Positions 997 to 63,882 of a DNA stretch of 64,000 bases are shown piece by piece; within the stretch, counting starts at the first letter, position 1, and the number at the start of each line of letters is the position of its first letter. The translations under genes were made by a program, and so were the position numbers. The notes under the pieces are model-generated. The model saw only the letters and a program-made list of their open reading frames with translations. It was not told where the DNA came from and did not search any database. The stretch comes from Parcubacteria group bacterium LiPW_15. Lineage in GTDB: Bacteria; Patescibacteriota; Minisyncoccia; UBA6257; 2-01-FULL-56-20. The stretch spans positions 134,256-198,255 of the forward strand of contig VMER01000001.1 of NCBI GenBank assembly GCA_007375645.1. Direction: 5' to 3'.

Positions 997-2095
997 AGGG
1001 ATCAAGTCCGGACGAAAACCGGACATATTTTTAATGGCGCTTTTGGCCCTCCTTGTCTTGGGCGGATTGTTCATTCTGGCCAGCGCGTCATCGGAGCTCG
1101 GGCGCATAAAGTTCGGCGACAGTTATTATTATTTAAAACATCAGGCCGTTTACGGGCTTCTGCCGGGAGTTATCGGATTTCTGATTTGTTTTTTTCTGTC
1201 GTACCAGAATTTAAAAAAGCTGGCCTTTCCGCTTTTCATTTTTAACCTCGCCCTGCTGACCCTCGTATTCACTAAGTTCGGCCTCTCAAGCGGGGGAGCG
1301 AGCCGTTGGCTGCAATTGGGGCCTATTTCCTTCCAACCCGCTGAATTGTTGAAATTGTCTTTTATCATCTATATTTCCGCCTGGGTTGGAGGCCAGGCTA
1401 AGCGCACCGCCAGTTTTTTGGGCGGTTTTTTACCGTTCCTTGTGGCCTCGGGAATAATGGCCGGAATGTTGTTCTTACAGCCGGCAACGAGCACGGTAGT
1501 GATCCTTCTTGCTTCCGGCGGAATGGTTTATTTCTTGAGCGGGGCGGAATGGAAATATATTTTTATGGCCGCCGGGTTGATCGTCGTAATTTTGGGTTCG
1601 CTCATATATTTCACGCCCTACAGAATGAAAAGAATCGTGGGATTTTTGGATAAATCGTCTAATACTCAAACCATAAACTATCACGTGAATCAGGCGCTTA
1701 TCGCGATAGGCTCGGGAGGAGCTTTCGGAATGGGTTACGGGAAATCCACCGCAAAAGTAAATTATCTGCCGGCGGTCATTGATGATTCCATTTTTGCCGT
1801 AGTCGGCCAGGAATTGGGATTCCTCGGCACCGGGCTCATCACAATTCTTTTCGGTATGCTGGTTTTCCGTTTGTTCTGGCTCGCAAAAAAAACTCGCGAT
1901 AAGTTCGGCAGGAACATGCTCGTAGGCTTCGGTTCCATTATCGCTCTTCAGTCCCTGGTTAATATGGGCGCAATCTCCGGAATTCTACCGCTCACCGGCG
2001 TACCTCTTCCGTTCATAAGCTACGGAGGCACGGCGCTCGCGATATTTATGACCATGGGCGGCATTTCGCTCAACATTTCCAAATATACGGGGTAA
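986..2095 (+). CDS. ftsW: SEDS-family peptidoglycan glycosyltransferase FtsW
   Basis: 369-aa polytopic membrane protein with the FtsW/RodA signature region GGT.L..F.SYGG, sitting immediately upstream of murG. Confidence 0.85.
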   Translation: MAFRGIKSGRKPDIFLMALLALLVLGGLFILASASSELGRIKFGDSYYYLKHQAVYGLLPGVIGFLICFFLSYQNLKKLAFPLFIFNLALLTLVFTKFGLSSGGASRWLQLGPISFQPAELLKLSFIIYISAWVGGQAKRTASFLGGFLPFLVASGIMAGMLFLQPATSTVVILLASGGMVYFLSGAEWKYIFMAAGLIVVILGSLIYFTPYRMKRIVGFLDKSSNTQTINYHVNQALIAIGSGGAFGMGYGKSTAKVNYLPAVIDDSIFAVVGQELGFLGTGLITILFGMLVFRLFWLAKKTRDKFGRNMLVGFGSIIALQSLVNMGAISGILPLTGVPLPFISYGGTALAIFMTMGGISLNISKYTG

Positions 2096-2105
2096 ACTTA
2101 AGTAA

Positions 2106-3254
2106 ATGACAAAGGTCAAAAAATATAAAATTGTTCTCGCGGGCGGAGGAACCGGCGGACACATCTACCCGCTTCTTGCCGTGGCCGAAGAATTAAGGGG
2201 TGTTTTTGAAAAGAACGGATATCTTTTGGAACTGCATTTTGTGGGAACCCCGGGCAAATTCGAAGACGAGATAAAAGCCGCGGGAATTAAAATACATAAA
2301 ATACTCGCCGGAAAATTCAGAAGATATTTATCTTTCGGATACTTAATAGACATCCCGAAAATATTTATCGGCCTCATTCAAGCGTTTTTAAAGATCTACG
2401 CCATCATGCCCGATGAAGTTTTTTCGAAAGGCGGTCCGGGCGCGTTTCAAACGGTTCTTGCCGCCAAGTTCTATATGATACCGGTTATGATCCACGAGTC
2501 CGACGCTTATCCGGGACTTACCAACTTGCTCTCGGCCCGTTTTGCGAAAAAGATCGCGATAAGTTTTCCTAATGTGGCGAAATATTTTAACCCGGCCAAA
2601 ACCATCTTAACCGGAAATCCGCTCCGTCCTTCGCTTTTACGCCAGCGGTTGGAATCCGGAGCCGCGAAGGAGGCCCTCGGTTTTTCATCCGCTTCGCCGC
2701 TTGTTCTTATACTCGGCGGTTCGCAGGGTTCGGAACGCGTAAATGACTTTATAATATCCGTTTTGAAAAATGTGATAATTGACGCGCAAATTTTGCATCA
2801 AACCGGCGCGGCCAATTACGAGCTTGTCCAAAAAGCGGCCCAGGCCACGCTTGTGGATGTGGCGGTTTCCGCGGAAGCGAAAAATCGTTATAAGGCGGTT
2901 TCGTTTCTCGTGGGAAAAGAAATGGCTTACGCGCTTTCGGCGGCGGATGTGGTGATCGGCCGCGCGGGAAGCGGAACTATTTTTGAGATCGCCGCATTCG
3001 GCAAACCTTCGATCCTTATCCCGCTTCCGGAAGCTGCGGGCGACCATCAAAGAGAAAATGCTTATGCTTACGCCCAGACCGGCGCCGCGTATGTCACGGA
3101 GGAGTCTAATTTTTCGCCCAATATTTTGCTTTCGGGGATAAAGAGGCTAACCGGCGGGGGAGATCTCCCAAAGGCTATGGCAGAGGCAGCTCTAAAATTC
3201 GCTAAACCACAGGCCGCCGAGGCAATTGCGGCAGAAGTCTTCAAGCTTGCTTAG
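2106..3254 (+). CDS. murG: UDP-N-acetylglucosamine--N-acetylmuramyl-(pentapeptide) pyrophosphoryl-undecaprenol N-acetylglucosamine transferase MurG
   Basis: N-terminal GGGTGGHIYP motif, GT28 fold and length, and ftsW-murG synteny. Confidence 0.9.
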   Translation: MTKVKKYKIVLAGGGTGGHIYPLLAVAEELRGVFEKNGYLLELHFVGTPGKFEDEIKAAGIKIHKILAGKFRRYLSFGYLIDIPKIFIGLIQAFLKIYAIMPDEVFSKGGPGAFQTVLAAKFYMIPVMIHESDAYPGLTNLLSARFAKKIAISFPNVAKYFNPAKTILTGNPLRPSLLRQRLESGAAKEALGFSSASPLVLILGGSQGSERVNDFIISVLKNVIIDAQILHQTGAANYELVQKAAQATLVDVAVSAEAKNRYKAVSFLVGKEMAYALSAADVVIGRAGSGTIFEIAAFGKPSILIPLPEAAGDHQRENAYAYAQTGAAYVTEESNFSPNILLSGIKRLTGGGDLPKAMAEAALKFAKPQAAEAIAAEVFKLA

Positions 3255-3327
3255 GGCCTCTTGGCGGGCCATTTTGGGGCACAAAAGGGCTATTTAAAGG
3301 CCTAAATCGGCATGTTATACTCCAAAT

Positions 3328-4767
3328 ATGGAGCCGAAAGCATCAAAATCGGTCCGGGTTCGGTTTGCCCCGAGCCCCACAGGTCCCTTCCATTTGGGAA
3401 GTGCCCGAGCTGCGCTTTTCAATTGGATCTATGCCCGTCAACAGAACGGTGTTTTTGTCTTGCGCATTGAGGATACCGACAAAGAACGTTCCAAAAAGGA
3501 GCATGAAGACGGGATCTTGGAATCCTTGCGCTGGCTTGGTCTTGATTGGGACGAAGGACCGGATGTCGGCGGAGAATACGGACCGTATCGCCAGAGCGAA
3601 CGAGAACCTATCTACGAAAAATATCTGAAGGAGCTTTTGGAAGCCGGAAAGGCGTATTACTGTTATTGCACCAAAGAAGAACTTGAGGCGCAAAAAGAAG
3701 CGATGATCGCCCAAGGTCTTCCGCCGAAATACAGCGGCCGTTGCCGGAACCTGGAATCGGCGCCCACCGATCGCAAACCGGAACTTATCCGCTTCAAAAC
3801 TCCGGAAGTCAAAGTAGAGTTCAAAGATATGATCCGCGGAAGCATGAGTTTTGACGCATCCTTATTCGGAGATATTCCGATAGCCAAAGATCTTCGTTCT
3901 CCGCTCTATAACTTCGCGGTGGTCATCGACGACGAGCTTATGAAGATAACCCACGTTATCAGGGGCGAAGATCATCTCTCGAATACTCCGAAACAGATCC
4001 TGTTCGGGAAAGCTTTGGGTTTCTCGGAGCCGACATTCGCTCATCTGCCGCTCATTCTTTCTGCCGACCGAAGCAAGCTTTCCAAGCGCTACGCAGAAAC
4101 TTCGCTTATTGAATATGAGAAACAAGGCTATCTTCCGGAAGCAATGGTCAATTTTCTCGTTCTTTTAGGATGGCATCCTAAGGGCGATCGCGAAGTATTT
4201 AAGGTTTCGGAGCTCATTGAAACCTTTGATCTAAAGCGCGTTCAAAAAGCCGGAGCTATCTGGAACGAAGAAAAACTTTCTTGGTTGAACAGCGAACACA
4301 TCCGCTCCATGGACACGGAAAAGCTAACCGCGCTGCTTAAGCCTTTTGTGATCGAGAAGTTTCCCGAAGCGGACGAAAAATTCCTTTTTAAGGTGGTAGC
4401 TGTGCAAAAAGACCGGCTTCGGACGCTTAAAGAATTCGCGGACATCGCCGGATTCTTCTTTGAGTTGCCGGCTTACGAATGGGGATTGCTTGTTTGGAAT
4501 AAAGAACCGCAGGAGAAGATAAAAGAATCTCTTCTCGCTACAGAAGAAGCTTTTAAAAATATTCCGGACGGCGAATTTACCAAAGAAAAAATAACCGACA
4601 GCCTAGCCTCTCTTGCCGAAGGTTTGGGCAGGGGAGTGGTCTTCTGGCCGCTGCGGGTATCCCTTTCCGGACAAAAAGCCTCACCGGACCCCGTGTCTAT
4701 CGCTGAAACTTTAGGCAAAGAAGAATCGCTTCGGCGCATTGAAAAAGCAATTAAAAAACTTCCGTAA
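3328..4767 (+). CDS. gltX: Glutamyl-tRNA synthetase
   Basis: Class I HIGH-type motif (HLGSARAALFNW) and a KLSKR motif, at the length expected for a GluRS. Confidence 0.9.
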   Translation: MEPKASKSVRVRFAPSPTGPFHLGSARAALFNWIYARQQNGVFVLRIEDTDKERSKKEHEDGILESLRWLGLDWDEGPDVGGEYGPYRQSEREPIYEKYLKELLEAGKAYYCYCTKEELEAQKEAMIAQGLPPKYSGRCRNLESAPTDRKPELIRFKTPEVKVEFKDMIRGSMSFDASLFGDIPIAKDLRSPLYNFAVVIDDELMKITHVIRGEDHLSNTPKQILFGKALGFSEPTFAHLPLILSADRSKLSKRYAETSLIEYEKQGYLPEAMVNFLVLLGWHPKGDREVFKVSELIETFDLKRVQKAGAIWNEEKLSWLNSEHIRSMDTEKLTALLKPFVIEKFPEADEKFLFKVVAVQKDRLRTLKEFADIAGFFFELPAYEWGLLVWNKEPQEKIKESLLATEEAFKNIPDGEFTKEKITDSLASLAEGLGRGVVFWPLRVSLSGQKASPDPVSIAETLGKEESLRRIEKAIKKLP

Positions 4768-4774
4768 GACCACG

Positions 4775-6067
4775 ATGACAGATCTTTTAAAAAAGACCTT
4801 TTCCGTAATTTCGACCCTCATAATTATTATGGGGCCGTCTAATTCTTTGGGCGCAACAACCGCGCCGCAGACGCGGGAAGAATTGGAACAGCAGATAAAA
4901 GACAGGTCCAAACAGCTGGAGACCTTGAATCAGGCTATCCAGACCACTCAAAATACCCTGAAAGACGTTCAGGGCCAGAAAACCACGCTTCAAAAGGAAG
5001 TTAAAACCCTAGATACCTCGCTCAAACAATTGGATTTGAGCATTCAATCCGACCGGGTAAACGCGCAAAAAATAAATTACCAGATCGATTCCATCGACAT
5101 GGATATCGAGGATATCGAGGCTTCCGTGCTGCAAAAAAACAGTTCTATTTCGGATCTTTTCCGCGAGCTTCAGAGGAATCAGGATAAAAATACGCTGATG
5201 ATATTTTTGGAAAACAAGACTATCAGCGAAGGTCTTTTGGCAACAAAATCTTTGGAGGATATACGTTCTCAGCTCGCGGTGGATATCCAATCGCTTAAGG
5301 AGTTGAAGGATCAATATCGGCAAAAAATGGAAGATCTTAGCGTCAAACACAAAGAGCTGGTCTATCATGAAGAAAATTTGAAGAATCGCAAACAAATAAC
5401 CGAAGAAACGAAGCAGGAAAGAGCCACGCTTTTGAGCCAGACCAAAGAGAAAGAAAGTGTTTATCAAAAACAGTTGGCCGATCTGAAAAAACTTCAGGAA
5501 GATATCGCGAATGAAATGGAGGCGATGGACGCCCAGCTCCGAAGCAAAGTTGATCCGAAGTTCTTGCCGCCGCTAAGTTCAGGAGTGCTGGGCTATCCCA
5601 TTCAGGGAGATAAAAGCGATATGACTCAGAGCTATGGAGCAACGGCCTTCGCAAAATATGGATATAAGGGTAAGTGGCATAACGGTATAGATTTCGGCGT
5701 ACCCATTGGAACTCCGATATTTGCCGCGGAGACAGGAATCATTCTTGCGACCGGGAATCAGGACTCATTCTGCTACAAAGGCGCATATGGAAAATTTGTT
5801 TTGATAAAGCACGAAAATAATTTAACGAGCCTTTACGGCCATCTTTCCAAATACATAGTTTCGCCCGGACAGAAAGTTGAGCGGGGACAGGTCATCGGTT
5901 ATTCCGGAAAAACCGGTTACGCGACCGGACCGCATTTACATTTCTCGGTTTTTGCCACGCCGACTATTCCGCCTGCCACCGGCAAATATCCGGAAGGAAT
6001 CAGCCCCTCCAAAAGCTGCGGCCCGATGCCATACGGCGGCGACTTGAATCCGTTGGGTTATCTCTAA
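4775..6067 (+). CDS. M23-family metallopeptidase with N-terminal signal peptide and long coiled-coil (EnvC-like murein hydrolase)
   Basis: C-terminal LytM/M23 motifs HxxxD and HLHF, with an N-terminal coiled coil. An alternative upstream start at 4739 is possible. Confidence 0.8.
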   Translation: MTDLLKKTFSVISTLIIIMGPSNSLGATTAPQTREELEQQIKDRSKQLETLNQAIQTTQNTLKDVQGQKTTLQKEVKTLDTSLKQLDLSIQSDRVNAQKINYQIDSIDMDIEDIEASVLQKNSSISDLFRELQRNQDKNTLMIFLENKTISEGLLATKSLEDIRSQLAVDIQSLKELKDQYRQKMEDLSVKHKELVYHEENLKNRKQITEETKQERATLLSQTKEKESVYQKQLADLKKLQEDIANEMEAMDAQLRSKVDPKFLPPLSSGVLGYPIQGDKSDMTQSYGATAFAKYGYKGKWHNGIDFGVPIGTPIFAAETGIILATGNQDSFCYKGAYGKFVLIKHENNLTSLYGHLSKYIVSPGQKVERGQVIGYSGKTGYATGPHLHFSVFATPTIPPATGKYPEGISPSKSCGPMPYGGDLNPLGYL

Positions 6068-6071
6068 AAAG

Positions 6072-6404
6072 ATGAAAGGAAAAATAATCCAAACTTTTGT
6101 CATAATTCTCGTCGCGCTCGCGGTCATCTATCTTTTTCAAAAAGAAATTTTGAATCTTCTTGGAAATGTGAGCGAGAGCGGCTTTAAAAATTATCTGGAA
6201 AGGGGAATCGCATTTTTGGCCGATCTGTTTGCCAGGTTGTTCGCTATCATTAAGTCGATCTTCTCCTTCTTTGCCGGAATAGTTTTAAAGATAATCGGTA
6301 ACGCTACCGAGTTATTTAAGCTCATAGACGGCATTTTGTGGGTCCTGGGTAAACTTTTTGCCCTTATTAAGGCCTTCTTTGGGTTCATTGCCGGCCTGGT
6401 TTAG
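6072..6404 (+). CDS. Small hypothetical membrane protein with internal repeats
   Basis: 110 aa, hydrophobic, with repeated LF..I..F.F.AG-type segments. Confidence 0.45.
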   Translation: MKGKIIQTFVIILVALAVIYLFQKEILNLLGNVSESGFKNYLERGIAFLADLFARLFAIIKSIFSFFAGIVLKIIGNATELFKLIDGILWVLGKLFALIKAFFGFIAGLV

Positions 6405-6419
6405 AGATAGGTTCCGGTT

Positions 6420-6640
6420 CAGAACCTTGTCGCGCCCAGATCCGCATTTAATTAAACTTCTGTCGTATAACGAACGGATAGAGTGTGTTGTTGCGATAAC
6501 TATTGAGTATAGTGTCGCAAAACCGGATTTCGCGACAGATTATTAAGCAACCCCATCTGTCGCTAAATCCGGTGACCTTGTTGCGACATATACATATGTC
6601 GCAAAAGGTATATTGTGCGACAGGTAGTATTGTAAAAAAG
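6420..6640. promoter_or_regulatory. Array of TGTCGC/GCGACA inverted-repeat motifs, including a perfect 22-bp palindrome TGCGACATATACATATGTCGCA (6582-6603) and the inverted repeat TGTCGC-n13-GCGACA (6513-6537)
   Basis: Read directly from the sequence. About nine half-sites fall within about 200 bp of AT-rich non-coding DNA. Confidence 0.4.
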
Positions 6641-6678
6641 CCAGCAGAATGGACAATCCTCTGCTGGTTTTGGCACGT

Positions 6679-6876
6679 CTACTTGATGGGCGCCGGTTCG
6701 TACGGGTGTCGGCGTGGCTTGGACGACGTCTTTGCCCGCCGCGTGGCTCTTTCTCGGGCAGCAACGATCTTCTTTGCGAGGCGCTGAAGTTCTTTCCTAT
6801 TCCAGTTGAGCGCCCGGATATCCTTCTTCGAAAGCTTTACGAGATACATTCCGTTGCCGAGCGATATCTTTTGCAC
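6679..6876 (-). CDS. Hypothetical small basic protein (GC-rich cassette 1)
   Basis: 65-aa ORF with a GTG start and a GAAGGAGG Shine-Dalgarno. A TTGGAC-17-TATACA promoter lies upstream, and the composition is GC-richer than the flanks. Confidence 0.45.
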   Translation of the reverse strand: MQKISLGNGMYLVKLSKKDIRALNWNRKELQRLAKKIVAARERATRRAKTSSKPRRHPYEPAPIK

Positions 6877-6911
6877 TTTCCCCTCCTTCGGCTACAAGTG
6901 ACCATATTCAG

Positions 6912-6940
6912 TGTATAACGGCTAAAGCTTTATTGTCCAA
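6912..6940 (-). promoter_or_regulatory. Sigma70-like promoter for cassette 1
   Basis: Minus-strand TTGGAC, a 17-bp spacer, then TATACA. Confidence 0.35.
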
Positions 6941-6960
6941 ATACTTAGTAGCTCCTATAA

Positions 6961-8310
6961 TTGAATCTCGTGGCCAAGCAACATATTCATTTTGTCGGCA
7001 TCGGCGGTATTGGGATGAGCGCGCTAGCCCGTTATTACTTGGCTCAAAATTGGGCTGTTTTCGGGTCCGACGTGGAAAAAAGCATAATTACCTCGGATCT
7101 TATAAAAGACGGCATATCGGTCAAAATCGGGCAGAAAAAGGAGAACATATCCCCTATCTTTGACCGTATCATCAAGAGTCAGGCGGTACAGGAGACCAAC
7201 CCGGAGATCTTAGAGGCAAGGAGGCTTGGACTTAAAGTTTTTTCTTATCCGGAGGCTGTCGGCGAGCTGACTAAAGATATTAAAACGATTGCCATTGCCG
7301 GCGCGCACGGCAAAAGCACGACTACGGCGATGATCGCCAAAATTTTGGTTGATGCCAAATTGGACCCAATGGTCATTTTGGGAGCGAAGTTTGATTTTTT
7401 TGACGGAAGAAACTTTCGCCTTGGAAAGAATTATTTGGTTTTGGAAGCGGACGAGTTCGGCCGGGCATTTTTGAATTATTACCCCACGCACACGGTTATT
7501 TTGAATATCGACAGAGAGCATTTGGATATTTATAGCGGCCTTAAGGACATTAAAGACACCTTTCTGCGTTTCATCTCTCAAACCAAACCGGGCGGTATTC
7601 TTATTTTGAACCGGGACGACAAAAATATTTTCTCGCTTAAAAATAAAATAGAAAAAATAGCCCTAAAAAATAAACTCAAAATTATCTGGTTCTCTTACTC
7701 CGACAAAATTCAGGCGGAAATATTCGGCGCGCTCCCTATTCCCGGGCGGCAGAACCGAACGGATGCGATCGCCGCTTATAATCTGGCATTGAGCCTTAAG
7801 GTGTCCAAAAAGAAGATATTAGAGTCCCTCTCCGGATATCCCGGCCTCTGGCGGCGAATGGAGCATAAAGGACCGGCTTTCGACGGTCGAGCGACGGTTT
7901 TCGACGATTATGCCCATCATCCTTCGGAAATTAAAGCCACCCTTTCCGCGTTCCGTGAAAAATACCCCGACTCCCCTATCCTTTGTGTTTTTAAACCGCA
8001 CCAGGCGAGCCGCCTTAAAATTTTGTTTAGGGATTTCTTAAATTCATTTTCCGCGGCCGATAAAATAATTATTCTCCCAACTTATATTGTTTTGGGCCGG
8101 GACATAGACGAGAAGGTTTTAACTGCGAAAAAATTGGCTGAAGACTTAGCCAAAAAATATCCGACGAAAAAGATCGTGTATCTTTCCGACTCCGATAAGC
8201 TTAAATCAACCCTGTATTCTCTTTTGTCTGCCGCGAATCCAAAGCCATCAGTTATCATTATGATGGGCGCTGGTTCGATAGCGAATCTTACAAAAAGCAT
8301 TTTGAACTGA
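6961..8310 (+). CDS. murC: UDP-N-acetylmuramate--L-alanine ligase MurC
   Basis: N-terminal IHFVGIGGIGMS motif and Mur ligase central and C-terminal domains. The start is TTG at 6961 or GTG at 6970, and no clear Shine-Dalgarno precedes it. Confidence 0.9.
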   Translation: MNLVAKQHIHFVGIGGIGMSALARYYLAQNWAVFGSDVEKSIITSDLIKDGISVKIGQKKENISPIFDRIIKSQAVQETNPEILEARRLGLKVFSYPEAVGELTKDIKTIAIAGAHGKSTTTAMIAKILVDAKLDPMVILGAKFDFFDGRNFRLGKNYLVLEADEFGRAFLNYYPTHTVILNIDREHLDIYSGLKDIKDTFLRFISQTKPGGILILNRDDKNIFSLKNKIEKIALKNKLKIIWFSYSDKIQAEIFGALPIPGRQNRTDAIAAYNLALSLKVSKKKILESLSGYPGLWRRMEHKGPAFDGRATVFDDYAHHPSEIKATLSAFREKYPDSPILCVFKPHQASRLKILFRDFLNSFSAADKIIILPTYIVLGRDIDEKVLTAKKLAEDLAKKYPTKKIVYLSDSDKLKSTLYSLLSAANPKPSVIIMMGAGSIANLTKSILN

Positions 8311-8328
8311 TTATATTAATCACCTCCA

Positions 8329-9087
8329 ATGTTCGATAACTATAAAAACGAAGAAGATTACAAAGAGCAGAACGGTTATACCATTGATGGTATTTGGTAC
8401 CCGCGGGTCACGCGTATCGTCGGTATAAAATCCAAACCGGCCCTCTATCGGTTCTACGGCGAAGCTCAGAGCTTCAAGGCGGCGCAGGAAAGCACGGAGA
8501 ATTCGGCAAAAGAAGGCACGTTAGTACATGAGGCGGTGGAAGCCTTGATGCTAGGGCATTCTCCCGTGATCGACCCGCTGGTGGCGCCGGCCGTGCAAGC
8601 CTATTTAAATTTTGTGGAAAGCAGAAACATAGAGACTGCTCCGGAATGGGTAGAGCGGAGAATTAAACATGCCGACCATCGCTATGCCGGCACGATCGAT
8701 GCGCTTGCGCTCATGGACGGAAAATTCGGTGTTTTGGACATCAAAACTTCGCAGGGAATTTATCGCGACTATAATCTCCAAACTTCCGCTTATGTGGAGG
8801 CGCTTCTCGAGGATTTTCCGAATATTCAAACCCGTTGGATATTGCGCATCGATCAGCAGCAGGTCTGCAATGTTTGCGGAGCGACGATGAGGACTAAGGG
8901 CGGACGGGAAAAAATAAAACGCGGACGTTCTAAGCCCTGCGAAACGCACATTTGGAGCGAAACGAAAGGCATTGTGGAGTTGCAGGAGTTTCCATATTGG
9001 AAGAGCGACTTTCAAGGTTTTTTGGGCGCGAAACGGTTGTGGGAGTGGGAAAATGAAGAGTGGTTAAAAAGAGTCGGATATCTATAA
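8329..9087 (+). CDS. PD-(D/E)XK nuclease superfamily protein with inserted C4-type zinc ribbon
   Basis: D..D-IK motif (GTIDALALMDGKFGVLDIKTSQ) plus a CxxC-x18-CxxH segment. This resembles RecB/Cas4-type nucleases. Confidence 0.6.
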   Translation: MFDNYKNEEDYKEQNGYTIDGIWYPRVTRIVGIKSKPALYRFYGEAQSFKAAQESTENSAKEGTLVHEAVEALMLGHSPVIDPLVAPAVQAYLNFVESRNIETAPEWVERRIKHADHRYAGTIDALALMDGKFGVLDIKTSQGIYRDYNLQTSAYVEALLEDFPNIQTRWILRIDQQQVCNVCGATMRTKGGREKIKRGRSKPCETHIWSETKGIVELQEFPYWKSDFQGFLGAKRLWEWENEEWLKRVGYL

Positions 9088-9095
9088 AATGAAAA

Positions 9096-9113
9096 CCTCG
9101 CCGGATGGCGAGG
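9096..9113. terminator. Bidirectional hairpin terminator
   Basis: Hairpin CCTCGCC-GGAT-GGCGAGG with an A-run before it and a T-rich run after it. It lies between convergent genes. Confidence 0.55.
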
Positions 9114-9140
9114 CTGTTTGCTCTCTGAAGAACTGGTTGG

Positions 9141-9383
9141 TCAACAACCGACCTGGGGGTAGGACTCTTCCCCTTTGGGCGGATCGACAGCGGCCACCTT
9201 GCTTCGGATGATCCCCCCGACGATTCCGAAGATGTGCGGGTTCTCGAGAAACATCTCGCCGGCCGCTTCGACCTCGGTGCCTCGTTGCGGGCCAGACAAG
9301 GTGGTGCCGTTCACGTAGACGCTCATTGTGAAGCGGGAAGTGCCGTTCTGACCTTCGGATTCCGTGATTCGAACGCTGGCCAT
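9141..9383 (-). CDS. Hypothetical protein (GC-rich cassette 2)
   Basis: 80-aa ORF with an AAGGAG Shine-Dalgarno. A TTGACT-17-TATGTT promoter lies upstream, and GC is higher than the flanks. Confidence 0.45.
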   Translation of the reverse strand: MASVRITESEGQNGTSRFTMSVYVNGTTLSGPQRGTEVEAAGEMFLENPHIFGIVGGIIRSKVAAVDPPKGEESYPQVGC

Positions 9384-9416
9384 CGATATCTCCTTTCCGA
9401 TTTGGGGCTGTCGAAA

Positions 9417-9445
9417 AACATACAGTGACTCCCCTCCCGAGTCAA
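9417..9445 (-). promoter_or_regulatory. Sigma70-like promoter for cassette 2
   Basis: Minus-strand TTGACT, a 17-bp spacer, then TATGTT. Confidence 0.4.
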
Positions 9446-9455
9446 GAAGGATCGC

Positions 9456-9638
9456 CTATTGCAGTCCTGCGGTCGTAGAGCACTTCTCGATTATTATCGG
9501 AGCCCGTGAATCTTTTTTTCCGTAAAGCTCTCCGATATAGAAGCTCAAGGCGAGGGCCAGAACAGCCAGAATGGCCCAAAAGACCATATGTTTATTGGCT
9601 AAAGTCTTCTCACTCCCCTCTCCCATGAACATTGACAT
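9456..9638 (-). CDS. Small hypothetical membrane protein
   Basis: 60-aa ORF with one predicted TM helix. Support is weak. Confidence 0.25.
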   Translation of the reverse strand: MSMFMGEGSEKTLANKHMVFWAILAVLALALSFYIGELYGKKDSRAPIIIEKCSTTAGLQ

Positions 9639-9699
9639 GATATTAACTATAGCATAGAATAGATACTCGTTAGCGCTGTAAACAATTATTTAAACAAAT

Positions 9700-14571: not shown

Positions 14572-15171
14572 CTAAACGATCACGAACTTTACGACGCCTG
14601 GTCGAACGGTAACAGGTCTGATCCGGTCGGCAGCGGTCGCCAGGACAACCTCCTTGGGCGACATCTGCGGTCCGCCCAGCTTCCGAATTCTTCGGTTCAC
14701 TACTTCGATCACAGATCTCGGCATTCCCGAGAGCATCATGATGTGATTGCTTTCCGTCAACGAGAACTTTCCCTCCGTGAGCGTGTAGGCCACGCGAGCT
14801 GCGAGAGTGTAGTACTCGATCGCGGCTTCGAGGAGGGCGATCTCCGGACGGACGCATTTGTTTCCCAGTTCGATCTCGAACCTAGAGAAACCGAGCCGTA
14901 TCATGCGGCGCTCGTTTTCCTCCCATGAGAACTCTTCGATCGCGGCCATGAAAAATCCGAGTGTAAGGTCGGCGCACAGCTTGACCTTACTCCTCAGCGC
15001 TGCCACTTCCCGCGGGAAGAAAAAGCCTGCTTTCGCGATCTCTTCGAGGCTGTGGGTTCTGCAGAACCTAAAGTCGATTTCATGACCGACGATGATCTCC
15101 GCCGAGATGGTCGAGCGTTTGGTCACTTCTCGCATACAAACGCAGCACCGAACCAGTTTATAACCTGCCAT
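14572..15171 (-). CDS. Hypothetical protein (GC-rich cassette 4), contains an Rx4H motif
   Basis: 199-aa ORF, GC-rich, with a strong AAGAGGAGG Shine-Dalgarno. The RFCRTH segment is HEPN-like; this is speculative. Confidence 0.45.
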   Translation of the reverse strand: MAGYKLVRCCVCMREVTKRSTISAEIIVGHEIDFRFCRTHSLEEIAKAGFFFPREVAALRSKVKLCADLTLGFFMAAIEEFSWEENERRMIRLGFSRFEIELGNKCVRPEIALLEAAIEYYTLAARVAYTLTEGKFSLTESNHIMMLSGMPRSVIEVVNRRIRKLGGPQMSPKEVVLATAADRIRPVTVRPGVVKFVIV

Positions 15172-57631: not shown

Positions 57632-58012
57632 ATGGCAACCGAGAAACGCTTCGTAGTCCTCGTGGAAGCCTGCAACGGAAGCAGCGGCCTCACGTGGTCA
57701 ACCGTCGTCCTCGACACGAGCGACGGCGCCCGGGCGATTCGCACCGCCAGAGAGGTCGAGAAGCTCGGCTACAAGATCGACTGGGAAAACGAAGATCAGG
57801 TGAAAGTTCTGCGTCTGGAACCCGAGAAGATCTACCCTGAGCGAGTTTTCGAGTGCGCGGACGACTCATTCGATCGGAGCCCCGTCGTCTACAAAAGGTG
57901 CAGGGACGCTTCCGCGGGTGTTCTGGTCGAGTACTTCTTCGACCCCAAACTTGCCTATGAGTTTGGGATGAGCATGGCCACGAGATTCCCGTCAGAGCCA
58001 ATCGAGGGATGA
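57632..58012 (+). CDS. Hypothetical cytoplasmic protein (GC-rich cassette 6, gene 1)
   Basis: 126 aa with GC-rich codons and an AGGAGG Shine-Dalgarno. Confidence 0.5.
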   Translation: MATEKRFVVLVEACNGSSGLTWSTVVLDTSDGARAIRTAREVEKLGYKIDWENEDQVKVLRLEPEKIYPERVFECADDSFDRSPVVYKRCRDASAGVLVEYFFDPKLAYEFGMSMATRFPSEPIEG

Positions 58013-58033: not shown

Positions 58034-58561
58034 GTGAAGAAGTCTTCCCTCATTCCGATTCTGAGCGTCATCGCGCTCACCATCCTTCTTCTGCCCCCTC
58101 CGAAAGGACCGAGCGCCGACCCGAGGAATGCTCCCGTGACCACGAGCCCTGACAAACTCGCCGTTGCCATCGGCGGCGGTCAACGAGACCCGATGAATCT
58201 CTTCCCGCCGGACAATCACAAGGCGAAGACGGCGGTCATCGCGCCGCAGTTCGAGGAGAACACCTCTGCTCGCCCGGCTGATTTCTTCCTCATCGATTCG
58301 GACGGGAGCACAAGCACCGTTCACCTTCCGGACGGTTGGGAGATCATGAGCGTCCAGCGGCATGGTCTTCCATTGAATCTTCACGTTGGCTTCGGCGACG
58401 ACGCTTACCACCTCGCTGTCGAGCTAAACGAAGCCAGCGAGCGTCTCGCACATACCTACACGGTAACGTGTAGGGTCAGTGCCACATTCAAAACGGCTGC
58501 GAGATTCGAGGTGAGAACCTTGACCATCCCGGGCGAGAAAATCACGTTCGACTCGCCGTAG
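58034..58561 (+). CDS. Hypothetical secreted protein (GC-rich cassette 6, gene 2)
   Basis: 175 aa with an N-terminal signal peptide and an AAGGAG Shine-Dalgarno. Confidence 0.5.
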   Translation: MKKSSLIPILSVIALTILLLPPPKGPSADPRNAPVTTSPDKLAVAIGGGQRDPMNLFPPDNHKAKTAVIAPQFEENTSARPADFFLIDSDGSTSTVHLPDGWEIMSVQRHGLPLNLHVGFGDDAYHLAVELNEASERLAHTYTVTCRVSATFKTAARFEVRTLTIPGEKITFDSP

Positions 58562-63693: not shown

Positions 63694-63882
63694 TCAGGCG
63701 AGAAGCTTCGGAAAGGCGTTGCAGATGTGACTCCACAGAGCCCTGAATCGGATCTCCCGTTCATAGCAGGCCTGTGTTTCGGTCTGTTCCCGACAGAGAT
63801 CGCACTTCCCCGACTCGTGACGACCGTTGATGTAGTCGTGGCCAGAGAGTACGAACTTCTCGGGCTTGTCGTCTCGCTTCAT
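63694..63882 (-). CDS. Hypothetical small Cys-containing protein (GC-rich cassette 7)
   Basis: 62 aa with a TAGGAGG Shine-Dalgarno. A TTGACT-17-TAATAT promoter lies upstream. Confidence 0.45.
   Translation of the reverse strand: MKRDDKPEKFVLSGHDYINGRHESGKCDLCREQTETQACYEREIRFRALWSHICNAFPKLLA

Follow-up and report, generated by a model that had tools for sequence, protein, structure and literature searches.

Why should a small segment carrying a single orphan gene lie between an array of palindromes and murC in one bacterial strain and be missing from its sister strain? The segment in question occupies positions 6646-6948 of a 64,000-nucleotide (nt) stretch of DNA from Parcubacteria group bacterium LiPW_15 (contig VMER01000001.1, positions 134,256 to 198,255 of the forward strand), which was analyzed at its full length and is referred to here as the window. 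The initial annotation took the palindromes to be operator-like and the murC gene to have lost its ribosome-binding site. Our comparisons favor a different answer, to which we assign a probability of roughly 60%, namely that the segment is an accessory orphan gene module beside the dif site at the terminus of a small, probably Patescibacteria (Candidate Phyla Radiation, CPR), chromosome. The earlier description is mainly corrected by this answer: the gene appears to be a real orphan accessory gene, whereas the operator array and the lost ribosome-binding site were misreadings. The features of the locus are given below, with two sister-strain contigs named L001 and L002 and with L127 the contig that encodes the single homologue of the small protein.

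6427-6446, plus strand: half-site TTGTCGCG, marking the left boundary of the strain-variable stretch (100% identity to L001 to 6446, 53% beyond)
6461-6497, plus strand: degenerate dif-like unit TGTCGTATAA-N17-TTGTTGCGAT; L001 and L127 have counterparts
6513-6537, plus strand: dif-like palindrome with a 5-nt spacer, TGTCGCAAAA-ccgga-TTTCGCGACA
6558-6588, plus strand: dif-like palindrome with an 11-nt spacer, TGTCGCTAAA-N11-TGTTGCGACA, in a stretch 53% identical between sister strains
6596-6623, plus strand: canonical 11-6-11 palindrome ATGTCGCAAAA-GGTATA-TTGTGCGACAG, putative Xer recombination (dif) site
6637-6671, both strands, with U-runs: hairpin terminator of the small gene (inverted repeat I8; RNA fold)
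6646-6948, no strand: strain-specific segment ("cassette") of 303 bp, missing from L001 and L002 (blastn, and MAFFT against L001)
6679-6876, minus strand: gene of the 65-amino-acid (aa) basic orphan protein, GTG start (list of open reading frames and the single homologue)
6882-6886, minus strand: Shine-Dalgarno (SD) sequence GGAGG of the small gene, 5 nt upstream of the GTG, read from the sequence
6910-6939, minus strand: predicted sigma70-type promoter of the small gene, TGGACA-N18-TACACT (consensus scan, 9/12 matches)

A strain-specific segment with one gene

The sister strain is represented by two short contigs, L001 (ENA ERZ27249449) and L002 (JGI 3300014208), both of which encode a 110-aa membrane protein identical to one encoded upstream in the window; its flanks match those of the window at 96-100% identity. 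When aligned with L001, the locus falls into blocks that differ widely in conservation:

Window up to 6446: first half-site and the flank to its left, 100% identity to L001
Window 6447-6589: variable part of the array, 53% identity
Window 6590-6645: canonical palindrome and flank, 90% identity
Window 6646-6948: cassette, absent from L001, which has 47 unrelated nt in its place
TATAAT box and GTG start onward (murC start): 100% identity, with MurC proteins 97% identical

By this alignment, the cassette is a strain-level presence/absence polymorphism. It begins 23 nt past the canonical palindrome and encodes the 65-aa protein only. Because L001 keeps the array without the cassette, the array is independent of the cassette. 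The description of the cassette as GC-rich holds only modestly for the segment as a whole (51.2% GC vs. 46.9% for the window, with 19% of 303-nt windows equally or more GC-rich) and rather better for the open reading frame (ORF) itself, which has a GC content of 55.6% and a GC content at third codon positions (GC3) of 0.68, compared to 0.51 for all coding sequences. The 47-nt spacer between motif and murC in L001 (~1205-1250) holds CCCCTCGCG, which is also the 3′ arm of the terminator hairpin after the cassette gene in contig L059 (100-130), and this shared stretch may be the scar of a lost cassette.

The small protein is, as first described, highly basic and begins with GTG: the ORF at 6679-6876 on the minus strand encodes exactly the protein sequence given in the initial annotation, with 19 lysine and arginine residues, four aspartate and glutamate residues and a pI of 11.5. 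The hairpin that follows the gene has a folding energy of -16.2 kcal/mol (z -2.6, RNA fold). A phmmer search of 1.84 billion representative proteins returned one relative, P0002 (82 aa, contig L127), which is 54% identical over residues 1-46 (E 1.9e-4); three repeat proteins returned beside it were discounted as relatives. The frame is kept over these 46 codons at 61% nucleotide identity, with 32, 34 and 18 identical nucleotides at codon positions 1, 2 and 3, respectively, and 14 codons that differ but are synonymous. This codon-position pattern and the synonymous differences indicate purifying selection on the frame, and because the pattern is accompanied by an SD sequence and a terminator, we took the gene as real. 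On these comparative grounds, the 65-aa ORF is a genuine gene under purifying selection. The start of P0002 is overlapped in L127 by a second small ORF (123-275; 50 aa, MSLSKKDLKTLERATKAL...), which has an LSKKD-helix motif and the AGGGGAAAGTG start context in common with the window gene; this ORF may be a truncated paralogue, to judge from these shared elements.

The protein had no match in Pfam, PHROGs, NCBIfam, PADLOC or PDB sequences, and no relatives were found by word-index search, by exact look-up, by a tblastn scan of metagenomes or by tblastn against phage and plasmid collections; P0002, when used as a word-index query, was a singleton. A viral-scan match to a DnaD-like protein sharing ALNWNRKE was dismissed as spurious. 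An AlphaFold2 (AF2) model predicts a beta-hairpin (residues 2-14), a helix (17-51) and a disordered basic tail, with a pLDDT (the confidence score of the model) of 82. The ribbon-helix-helix (RHH) and AbrB/SpoVT repressors are likewise small and have, at the N terminus, a beta element that leads into a helix; the predicted beta-hairpin and single 35-residue helix, however, form neither a beta-alpha-alpha arrangement nor a swapped hairpin, and with no family or structural match the RHH- or AbrB-like fold that had been proposed is not borne out. Excisionases and other recombination directionality factors (RDFs), as well as XafT of TLCphi, are alike in size, high pI and the position of the gene beside a recombination site, and the N-terminal hairpin, as we read the P0004 repeat alignment, is loosely similar to the wing of the excisionase winged helix. 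This is analogy only, as the protein differs from them in lacking a sequence or fold match and a helix-turn-helix. Nucleic-acid binding through the basic tail is plausible from the composition of the protein, at what we would put a little short of even odds; the protein might oligomerize through the hairpin and the long helix, and would then act for the element that brought it rather than on the array.

The canonical palindrome as a candidate dif site

Three perfect TGTCGC-N(5,11,6)-GCGACA palindromes lie beside the cassette (6513-6537, 6558-6588 and 6597-6622), where 0.06 would be expected by chance, and nothing comparable to the array occurs elsewhere in the 64-kb window, in which the N6-spaced unit is found once. 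L004, a murC relative at 47% identity, has a single copy of the palindrome just ahead of murC. This led us to scan metagenomes with the pattern TGTCGYAAAA-N6-TTGTGCGACA, accepting only exact matches. The exact 26-nt core is present in at least 120 metagenome contigs and at least 40 IMG/VR contigs, and it occurs once per contig among the matches listed, including contigs of 956, 545, 347 and 337 kb, the 956-kb one being Ga0209542_10000005; these counts are lower bounds, and both the uniqueness of the motif and its position at a terminus are read from contigs rather than from closed genomes. The central 6 nt were left free in the scan, but across 119 non-identical contexts among the matches listed they are conserved as g-n-T-A-T-A, and an A at flanking position -1 (72%) and a T or C at +27 (87%) extend the 10-nt arms to 11, giving the consensus ATGTCGYAAAA-gaTATA-TTGTGCGACAt. 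An 11-6-11 architecture is that of the core site of tyrosine recombinases (PMC5357621).

The genomic setting of the motif points in the same direction. GC skew left minus right of the motif was positive in 34 of the 39 loci with enough flank (Wilcoxon p 1.8e-7), in a test that is confounded by convergent gene orientation, and positive skew on the left with negative skew on the right was seen in 18 loci vs. 2 with the reverse pattern. In the window, cumulative GC skew climbs to a peak at ~8-10 kb, from which it declines steadily as far as 64 kb. The flanking genes are mostly convergent and can be grouped into a small number of conserved syntenies, the M23 peptidase gene of the window being common to 19 loci. 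In nine loci (L039, L015, L060, L061, L086, L113, L117, L119 and L126) a gene for a XerC/XerD-like recombinase of 309-347 aa is located 42-1041 nt from the motif; the protein has Phage_integrase and SAM-like domains, and its best NCBIfam matches, over the full length, are XerC (TIGR02224, 5.6e-72) and XerD (TIGR02225, 6.3e-71).

From its architecture and setting, we consider the motif likely to be the dif site of this bacterial group, for which we found no description of such a site in the searchable literature. The locus would then be the replication-terminus region of a small, probably Patescibacteria, chromosome, where each of the two 11-bp inverted arms would bind an Xer tyrosine recombinase and strand exchange in the 6-bp center would resolve chromosome dimers; the near symmetry of the arms suggests a single-recombinase system. 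The known Xer/dif systems (XerCD/dif of E. coli and B. subtilis, XerS/difSL, XerH/difH and archaeal XerA/dif) share with the motif a 28-bp site of 11-bp inverted arms and a 6-bp center, a position at the GC-skew shift and, as for xerS and xerH, a recombinase gene that is sometimes adjacent. Known dif sites occur essentially once per chromosome, which the motif may do as well. Integrase-less phages exploit the site in both cases (PMC5357621, PMC3025954). The motif differs from the known sites in its distinct sequence, in its almost perfectly symmetric arms and in the 2-7 extra non-canonical palindromes that accompany it in a few lineages.

Of 127 loci, 8 have such extra palindromes with non-canonical spacing, which in almost all cases lie left of the canonical site; they constitute the most divergent part of the locus between the sister strains. 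Having good arms and wrong spacing, the left-hand palindromes are, as far as can be read from their sequences, variant or decayed copies of the dif-like site, which might serve as decoys or as accessory sites bound by Xer, or be scars. The most extreme array of the window type that we saw is in contig L058 (Ga0209541_10083611), which has seven extra half-sites and in which a ~100-nt unit with two variant palindromes (N5 and N12) is repeated 330 nt left of the motif.

Several other identities were considered for the palindromes and rejected. The spacers are too short for a CRISPR-like array (clustered regularly interspaced short palindromic repeats), and repetitive extragenic palindromes or bacterial interspersed mosaic elements (REP/BIME) do not fit one cluster per contig with a sequence conserved across lineages. 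Operators of the NrdR, LexA, Zur and 434 types bear only a partial resemblance to the half-sites, and the genomic distribution is unlike that of a regulon. A structured RNA was rejected in view of the lack of an Rfam match and a loop that is conserved rather than covarying, and a sigma70 promoter centered on TATATT in view of the lack of a conserved -35. A C-rich box located 30-50 nt right of the motif was traced to terminator hairpins of convergent genes, of which it forms the 3′ arm. In seven loci of one lineage (L011, L017, L068, L076, L078, L100 and L106), a convergent gene 104-627 nt to the right of the motif encodes a protein of ~780-1040 aa that has both TrwB/TraG-type coupling-protein and HerA-like ATPase domains.

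The more useful by-product of this analysis may be the candidate dif site of a lineage that is uncultivated and probably belongs to Patescibacteria. The motif could mark replication termini on metagenomic contigs, flag integrase-less filamentous prophages and point to a small hypervariable zone in which foreign orphan genes gather.

Arrival of the cassette and competing explanations

DNA has entered the region directly to the right of the motif in other genomes. Contigs L164 and L054 share 93% identity on either side of the motif, and L164 carries a 5.1-kb insert directly to the right of it, which ends in the half site GATATA-TTGTGCGACA and a duplicated flank. The genes of the insert include those for a Zot-like ATPase and a rolling-circle Rep; no integrase was found among its ORFs of at least 70 aa.

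L164 (IMG/VR 3300008515_000118), ~2084-7226, locus oriented with the motif forward: inovirus-like prophage

Inovirus-like prophages of ~5 kb, likewise with a Zot-like ATPase and a rolling-circle Rep and no integrase, also lie directly to the right of the motif in L137, L130, L136, L138, L143, L162 and L084. At the right junction, the prophage retains the central region and the right arm only. Filamentous phages that exploit XerCD at dif behave in this way (PMC5357621, PMC3025954), and the prophage represents one mechanism able to place DNA to the right of the motif. Upstream of these prophages is a gene that looks like ftsQ by eye and has no Pfam match.

The same slot holds small genes in other organisms. 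The layout of L127 is that of the window, with a small ORF, a hairpin terminator, the canonical motif, further dif-like units and a small membrane-protein gene, and the two members of the protein family share both slot and orientation beside the motif; no relative of the 65-aa protein was found near the motif in any other locus examined. In L058 the slot contains a minus-strand, SD-bearing gene of ~166 aa ahead of murC, and in L059 two minus-strand, SD-bearing genes of 83 and 95 aa ahead of a gene of the PD-(D/E)XK family. These occupants are unrelated to the window gene, with no Pfam family found for any of them, and because unrelated genes occupy it in other genomes, the zone to the right of the motif would seem to be a recurrent landing place for foreign genes. 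SD-bearing ORFs number 16 to the right and 5 to the left of the motif, a count contaminated by internal starts of long native genes and not relied on here.

We envisage the cassette as a strain-specific accessory module consisting of a single gene that is self-contained, having a promoter, a strong SD sequence, an ORF and a terminator of its own. Its composition and translation signals look foreign to the genome, and the gene was probably acquired. An element using the host Xer system may have integrated at dif and then decayed, leaving the cassette as its cargo; we propose this route tentatively, as a possibility that falls clearly below even odds. Integrative mobile elements that exploit the Xer system (IMEXs; CTXphi, VGJphi, TLCphi and the gonococcal genetic island) likewise place integrase-less DNA directly at dif and leave a functional site on one side, as does the L164 prophage, and the cassette has no integrase and is on the same side of the site as that prophage. 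The cassette differs from IMEXs in comprising 303 bp and one gene, without replication or morphogenesis genes or a recognizable second att site, and would be at best a remnant. The pdif modules of Acinetobacter plasmids and chromosomes, as described in two reports (PMC12907356, PMC11705084), are small gene modules at Xer sites that vary between close relatives and are associated with multiple dif-like sites. They differ in that pdif modules are bounded by two opposed XerC/XerD sites, whereas the cassette has one canonical site, with the extra ones on its other side.

A number of observations weigh against our interpretation of the locus. No second dif-like site was detected at the right edge of the cassette: the window contains no dif-like site with 5 or fewer mismatches outside 6513-6622, and the best remnant at the right edge, at 6927, matches at 10 of 16 positions, for which ~0.15 would be expected by chance. 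The window and L001 differ by a replacement and not by a clean insertion. The extra palindromes are to the left of the canonical site and the insertions to its right, which the proposed model leaves unexplained. None of the 40 motif-bearing viral contigs listed carries a relative of the 65-aa protein, which has no fold match and belongs to a family of two members, so that its function is a guess. No Xer gene is present within the 64-kb window, and the 17 of 28 positions at which the motif is identical to E. coli dif are not above chance, with 13 other 28-mers of the window reaching at least 17. The confounded skew test and the reading of uniqueness and terminus position from contigs, described above, belong here as well. 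So do the other strong-SD genes of the window. The 65-aa gene is an odd one among its neighbors in combining a strong SD sequence with high GC3, as do a few other ORFs without a Pfam match (GC3 0.69-0.74 vs. 0.51), which are probably the other "GC-rich cassettes" of the initial annotation:

9141-9383, minus strand: GC-rich, strong-SD ORF
14572-15171, minus strand: GC-rich, strong-SD ORF, within a GC-rich island at ~14.1-15.2 kb (GC up to 0.65)
57632-58012, plus strand: GC-rich, strong-SD ORF
58034-58561, plus strand: GC-rich, strong-SD ORF
63694-63882, minus strand: GC-rich, strong-SD ORF

Strong SD sequences and high GC3 mark these ORFs as probable acquisitions, and no dif-like site was found near any of them. 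Since similar orphans lie elsewhere in the window without such a site nearby, Xer need not have been the route of entry. The explanation that survives best beside our own is indeed that the cassette entered independently of Xer, by ordinary horizontal transfer and illegitimate recombination in terminus intergenic DNA that tolerates insertions. At least five other GC-rich, strong-SD, Pfam-less ORFs away from dif-like sites, the missing second site and the replacement seen in L001 would all be accounted for in this way. Yet the only homologue of the gene, in a diverged organism, lies beside the motif in the same position and orientation, unrelated orphans fill the slot in L058 and L059, and the prophages insert on the same side, which makes an entry unconnected with Xer a serious though unlikely alternative. 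An idea that goes further than a remnant of a decayed element is that the terminus dif site is a platform for the capture and exchange of tiny gene modules, in which the left-hand palindromes would be working accessory or exchange sites, the right-hand orphans here and in L058, L059 and L127 would be Xer-shuffled cargo, and the 65-aa protein would be a new Xer-directing or recombination-directionality factor; this is a long shot.

The palindromes might instead control murC and other cell-envelope genes at the level of transcription or RNA, acting either as an operator over a -10-like TATATT or as a 5′ hairpin. The motif of L004 ends 3 nt ahead of the murC start and has TATATT at its center, murC follows the motif in ~11 loci, genes for murI and M23 peptidases are frequent neighbors, and the variable position 6 (C or T) preserves a G-U pair in one orientation only. 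Against such a role, most copies are found between convergent genes or beside unrelated genes, long contigs have a single copy, there is neither a conserved -35 nor an Rfam match, nine loci have a Xer gene beside the motif, and the prophage junction shows half-site duplication. We therefore regard a control element as improbable.

Hardly any weight attaches to the proposal of the initial annotation, in which the 65-aa protein is an RHH- or AbrB-like regulator and the TGTCGC palindromes are its operators, controlling either its own gene or murC. The array itself is real and adjoins the gene, with three units where 0.06 were expected and with its last unit ending 57 nt from the stop codon; the protein is very basic, and it co-occurs with an array in both known instances (the window and L127). 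The array, however, lies beyond the terminator on the 3′ side of the gene, between convergent genes and not in a promoter, it occurs without the gene in L001, L058, L030 and L087, its core unit is found in more than 160 contigs without the protein, and half-site spacings of 5, 6, 11 and 17 nt are a misfit with one dimeric repressor. What remains of that claim is thus an array next to the gene that is not its operator. That the 65-aa ORF is a chance ORF in GC-richer non-coding DNA would agree with its lack of a family or fold match and with the 89-aa antisense ORF that overlaps it, but is extremely improbable given the strong SD sequence at proper spacing, the terminator, and a frame kept over 46 codons with divergence concentrated at the third position in the comparison with P0002.

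The murC start and neighboring genes

The DNA directly downstream of the cassette contains the murC promoter and gene:

6933-6961, plus strand: murC promoter TTGTCC-N17-TATAAT (consensus scan, 10/12 matches)
6970-8310, plus strand: murC (Pfam Mur_ligase, Mur_ligase_M and Mur_ligase_C), with a probable GTG start 8 nt after the -10

No SD sequence is present ahead of murC at either the TTG at 6961 or the GTG at 6970. An SD-like motif precedes only 8 of the 67 large ORFs of the window, and many of these ORFs have a TAnnnT (-10-like) box 5-12 nt ahead of the start codon, which suggests that the genes of the window are mostly translated from leaderless or short-leader transcripts. The cassette-free L001 has the same murC start, TATAAT-N8-GTG, and in more distant relatives the layout is TATAAT-N6-ATG (L046), TATAAT-N8-ATG (L058) or TATAAT-N9-ATG (L005). 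Because 59 of the 67 ORFs lack an SD sequence and the start is identical in L001, murC has lost no ribosome-binding site, contrary to what had been proposed. The comparison of upstream regions in relatives that had been suggested as a check found this box-to-start layout in the relatives named, and the SD-less start, which L001 has without the cassette, was not caused by it. Judged by its promoter geometry, the murC start is probably a native leaderless or near-leaderless one.

The accompanying suggestion that an insertion displaced the region upstream of murC is correct in part. The cassette does cover everything upstream of the -10 box, and its arrival would have replaced the DNA ahead of the native -10 and changed the -35, while the absence of an SD sequence is native. 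In the promoter as it now stands, the -35 (TTGTCC, 6933-6938) is new and lies within cassette DNA, and the -10 lies within conserved DNA that is identical in L001 from the -10 onward. This -35 is better than the one replaced and overlaps the -35 of the divergent promoter of the small gene. The contrast between native genes (SD-less, in the leaderless style) and acquired ones (strong SD, high GC3) may offer a simple marker of recent transfer.

Downstream of murC is a gene of the PD-(D/E)XK nuclease family (window 8329-9087). In L031, L122, L029 and L059 its orthologues come directly after the dif-like motif, which makes it a conserved neighbor of the putative terminus site. Two small minus-strand genes, encoding a protein of 80 aa and a membrane protein of 60 aa, lie between the PD-(D/E)XK gene and rpmA (window 9088-9699), and sister-strain contig L168 has both as well. 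Relatives of the 60-aa membrane protein occur in L031, L004 and L012, which points to a native gene rather than a cassette.

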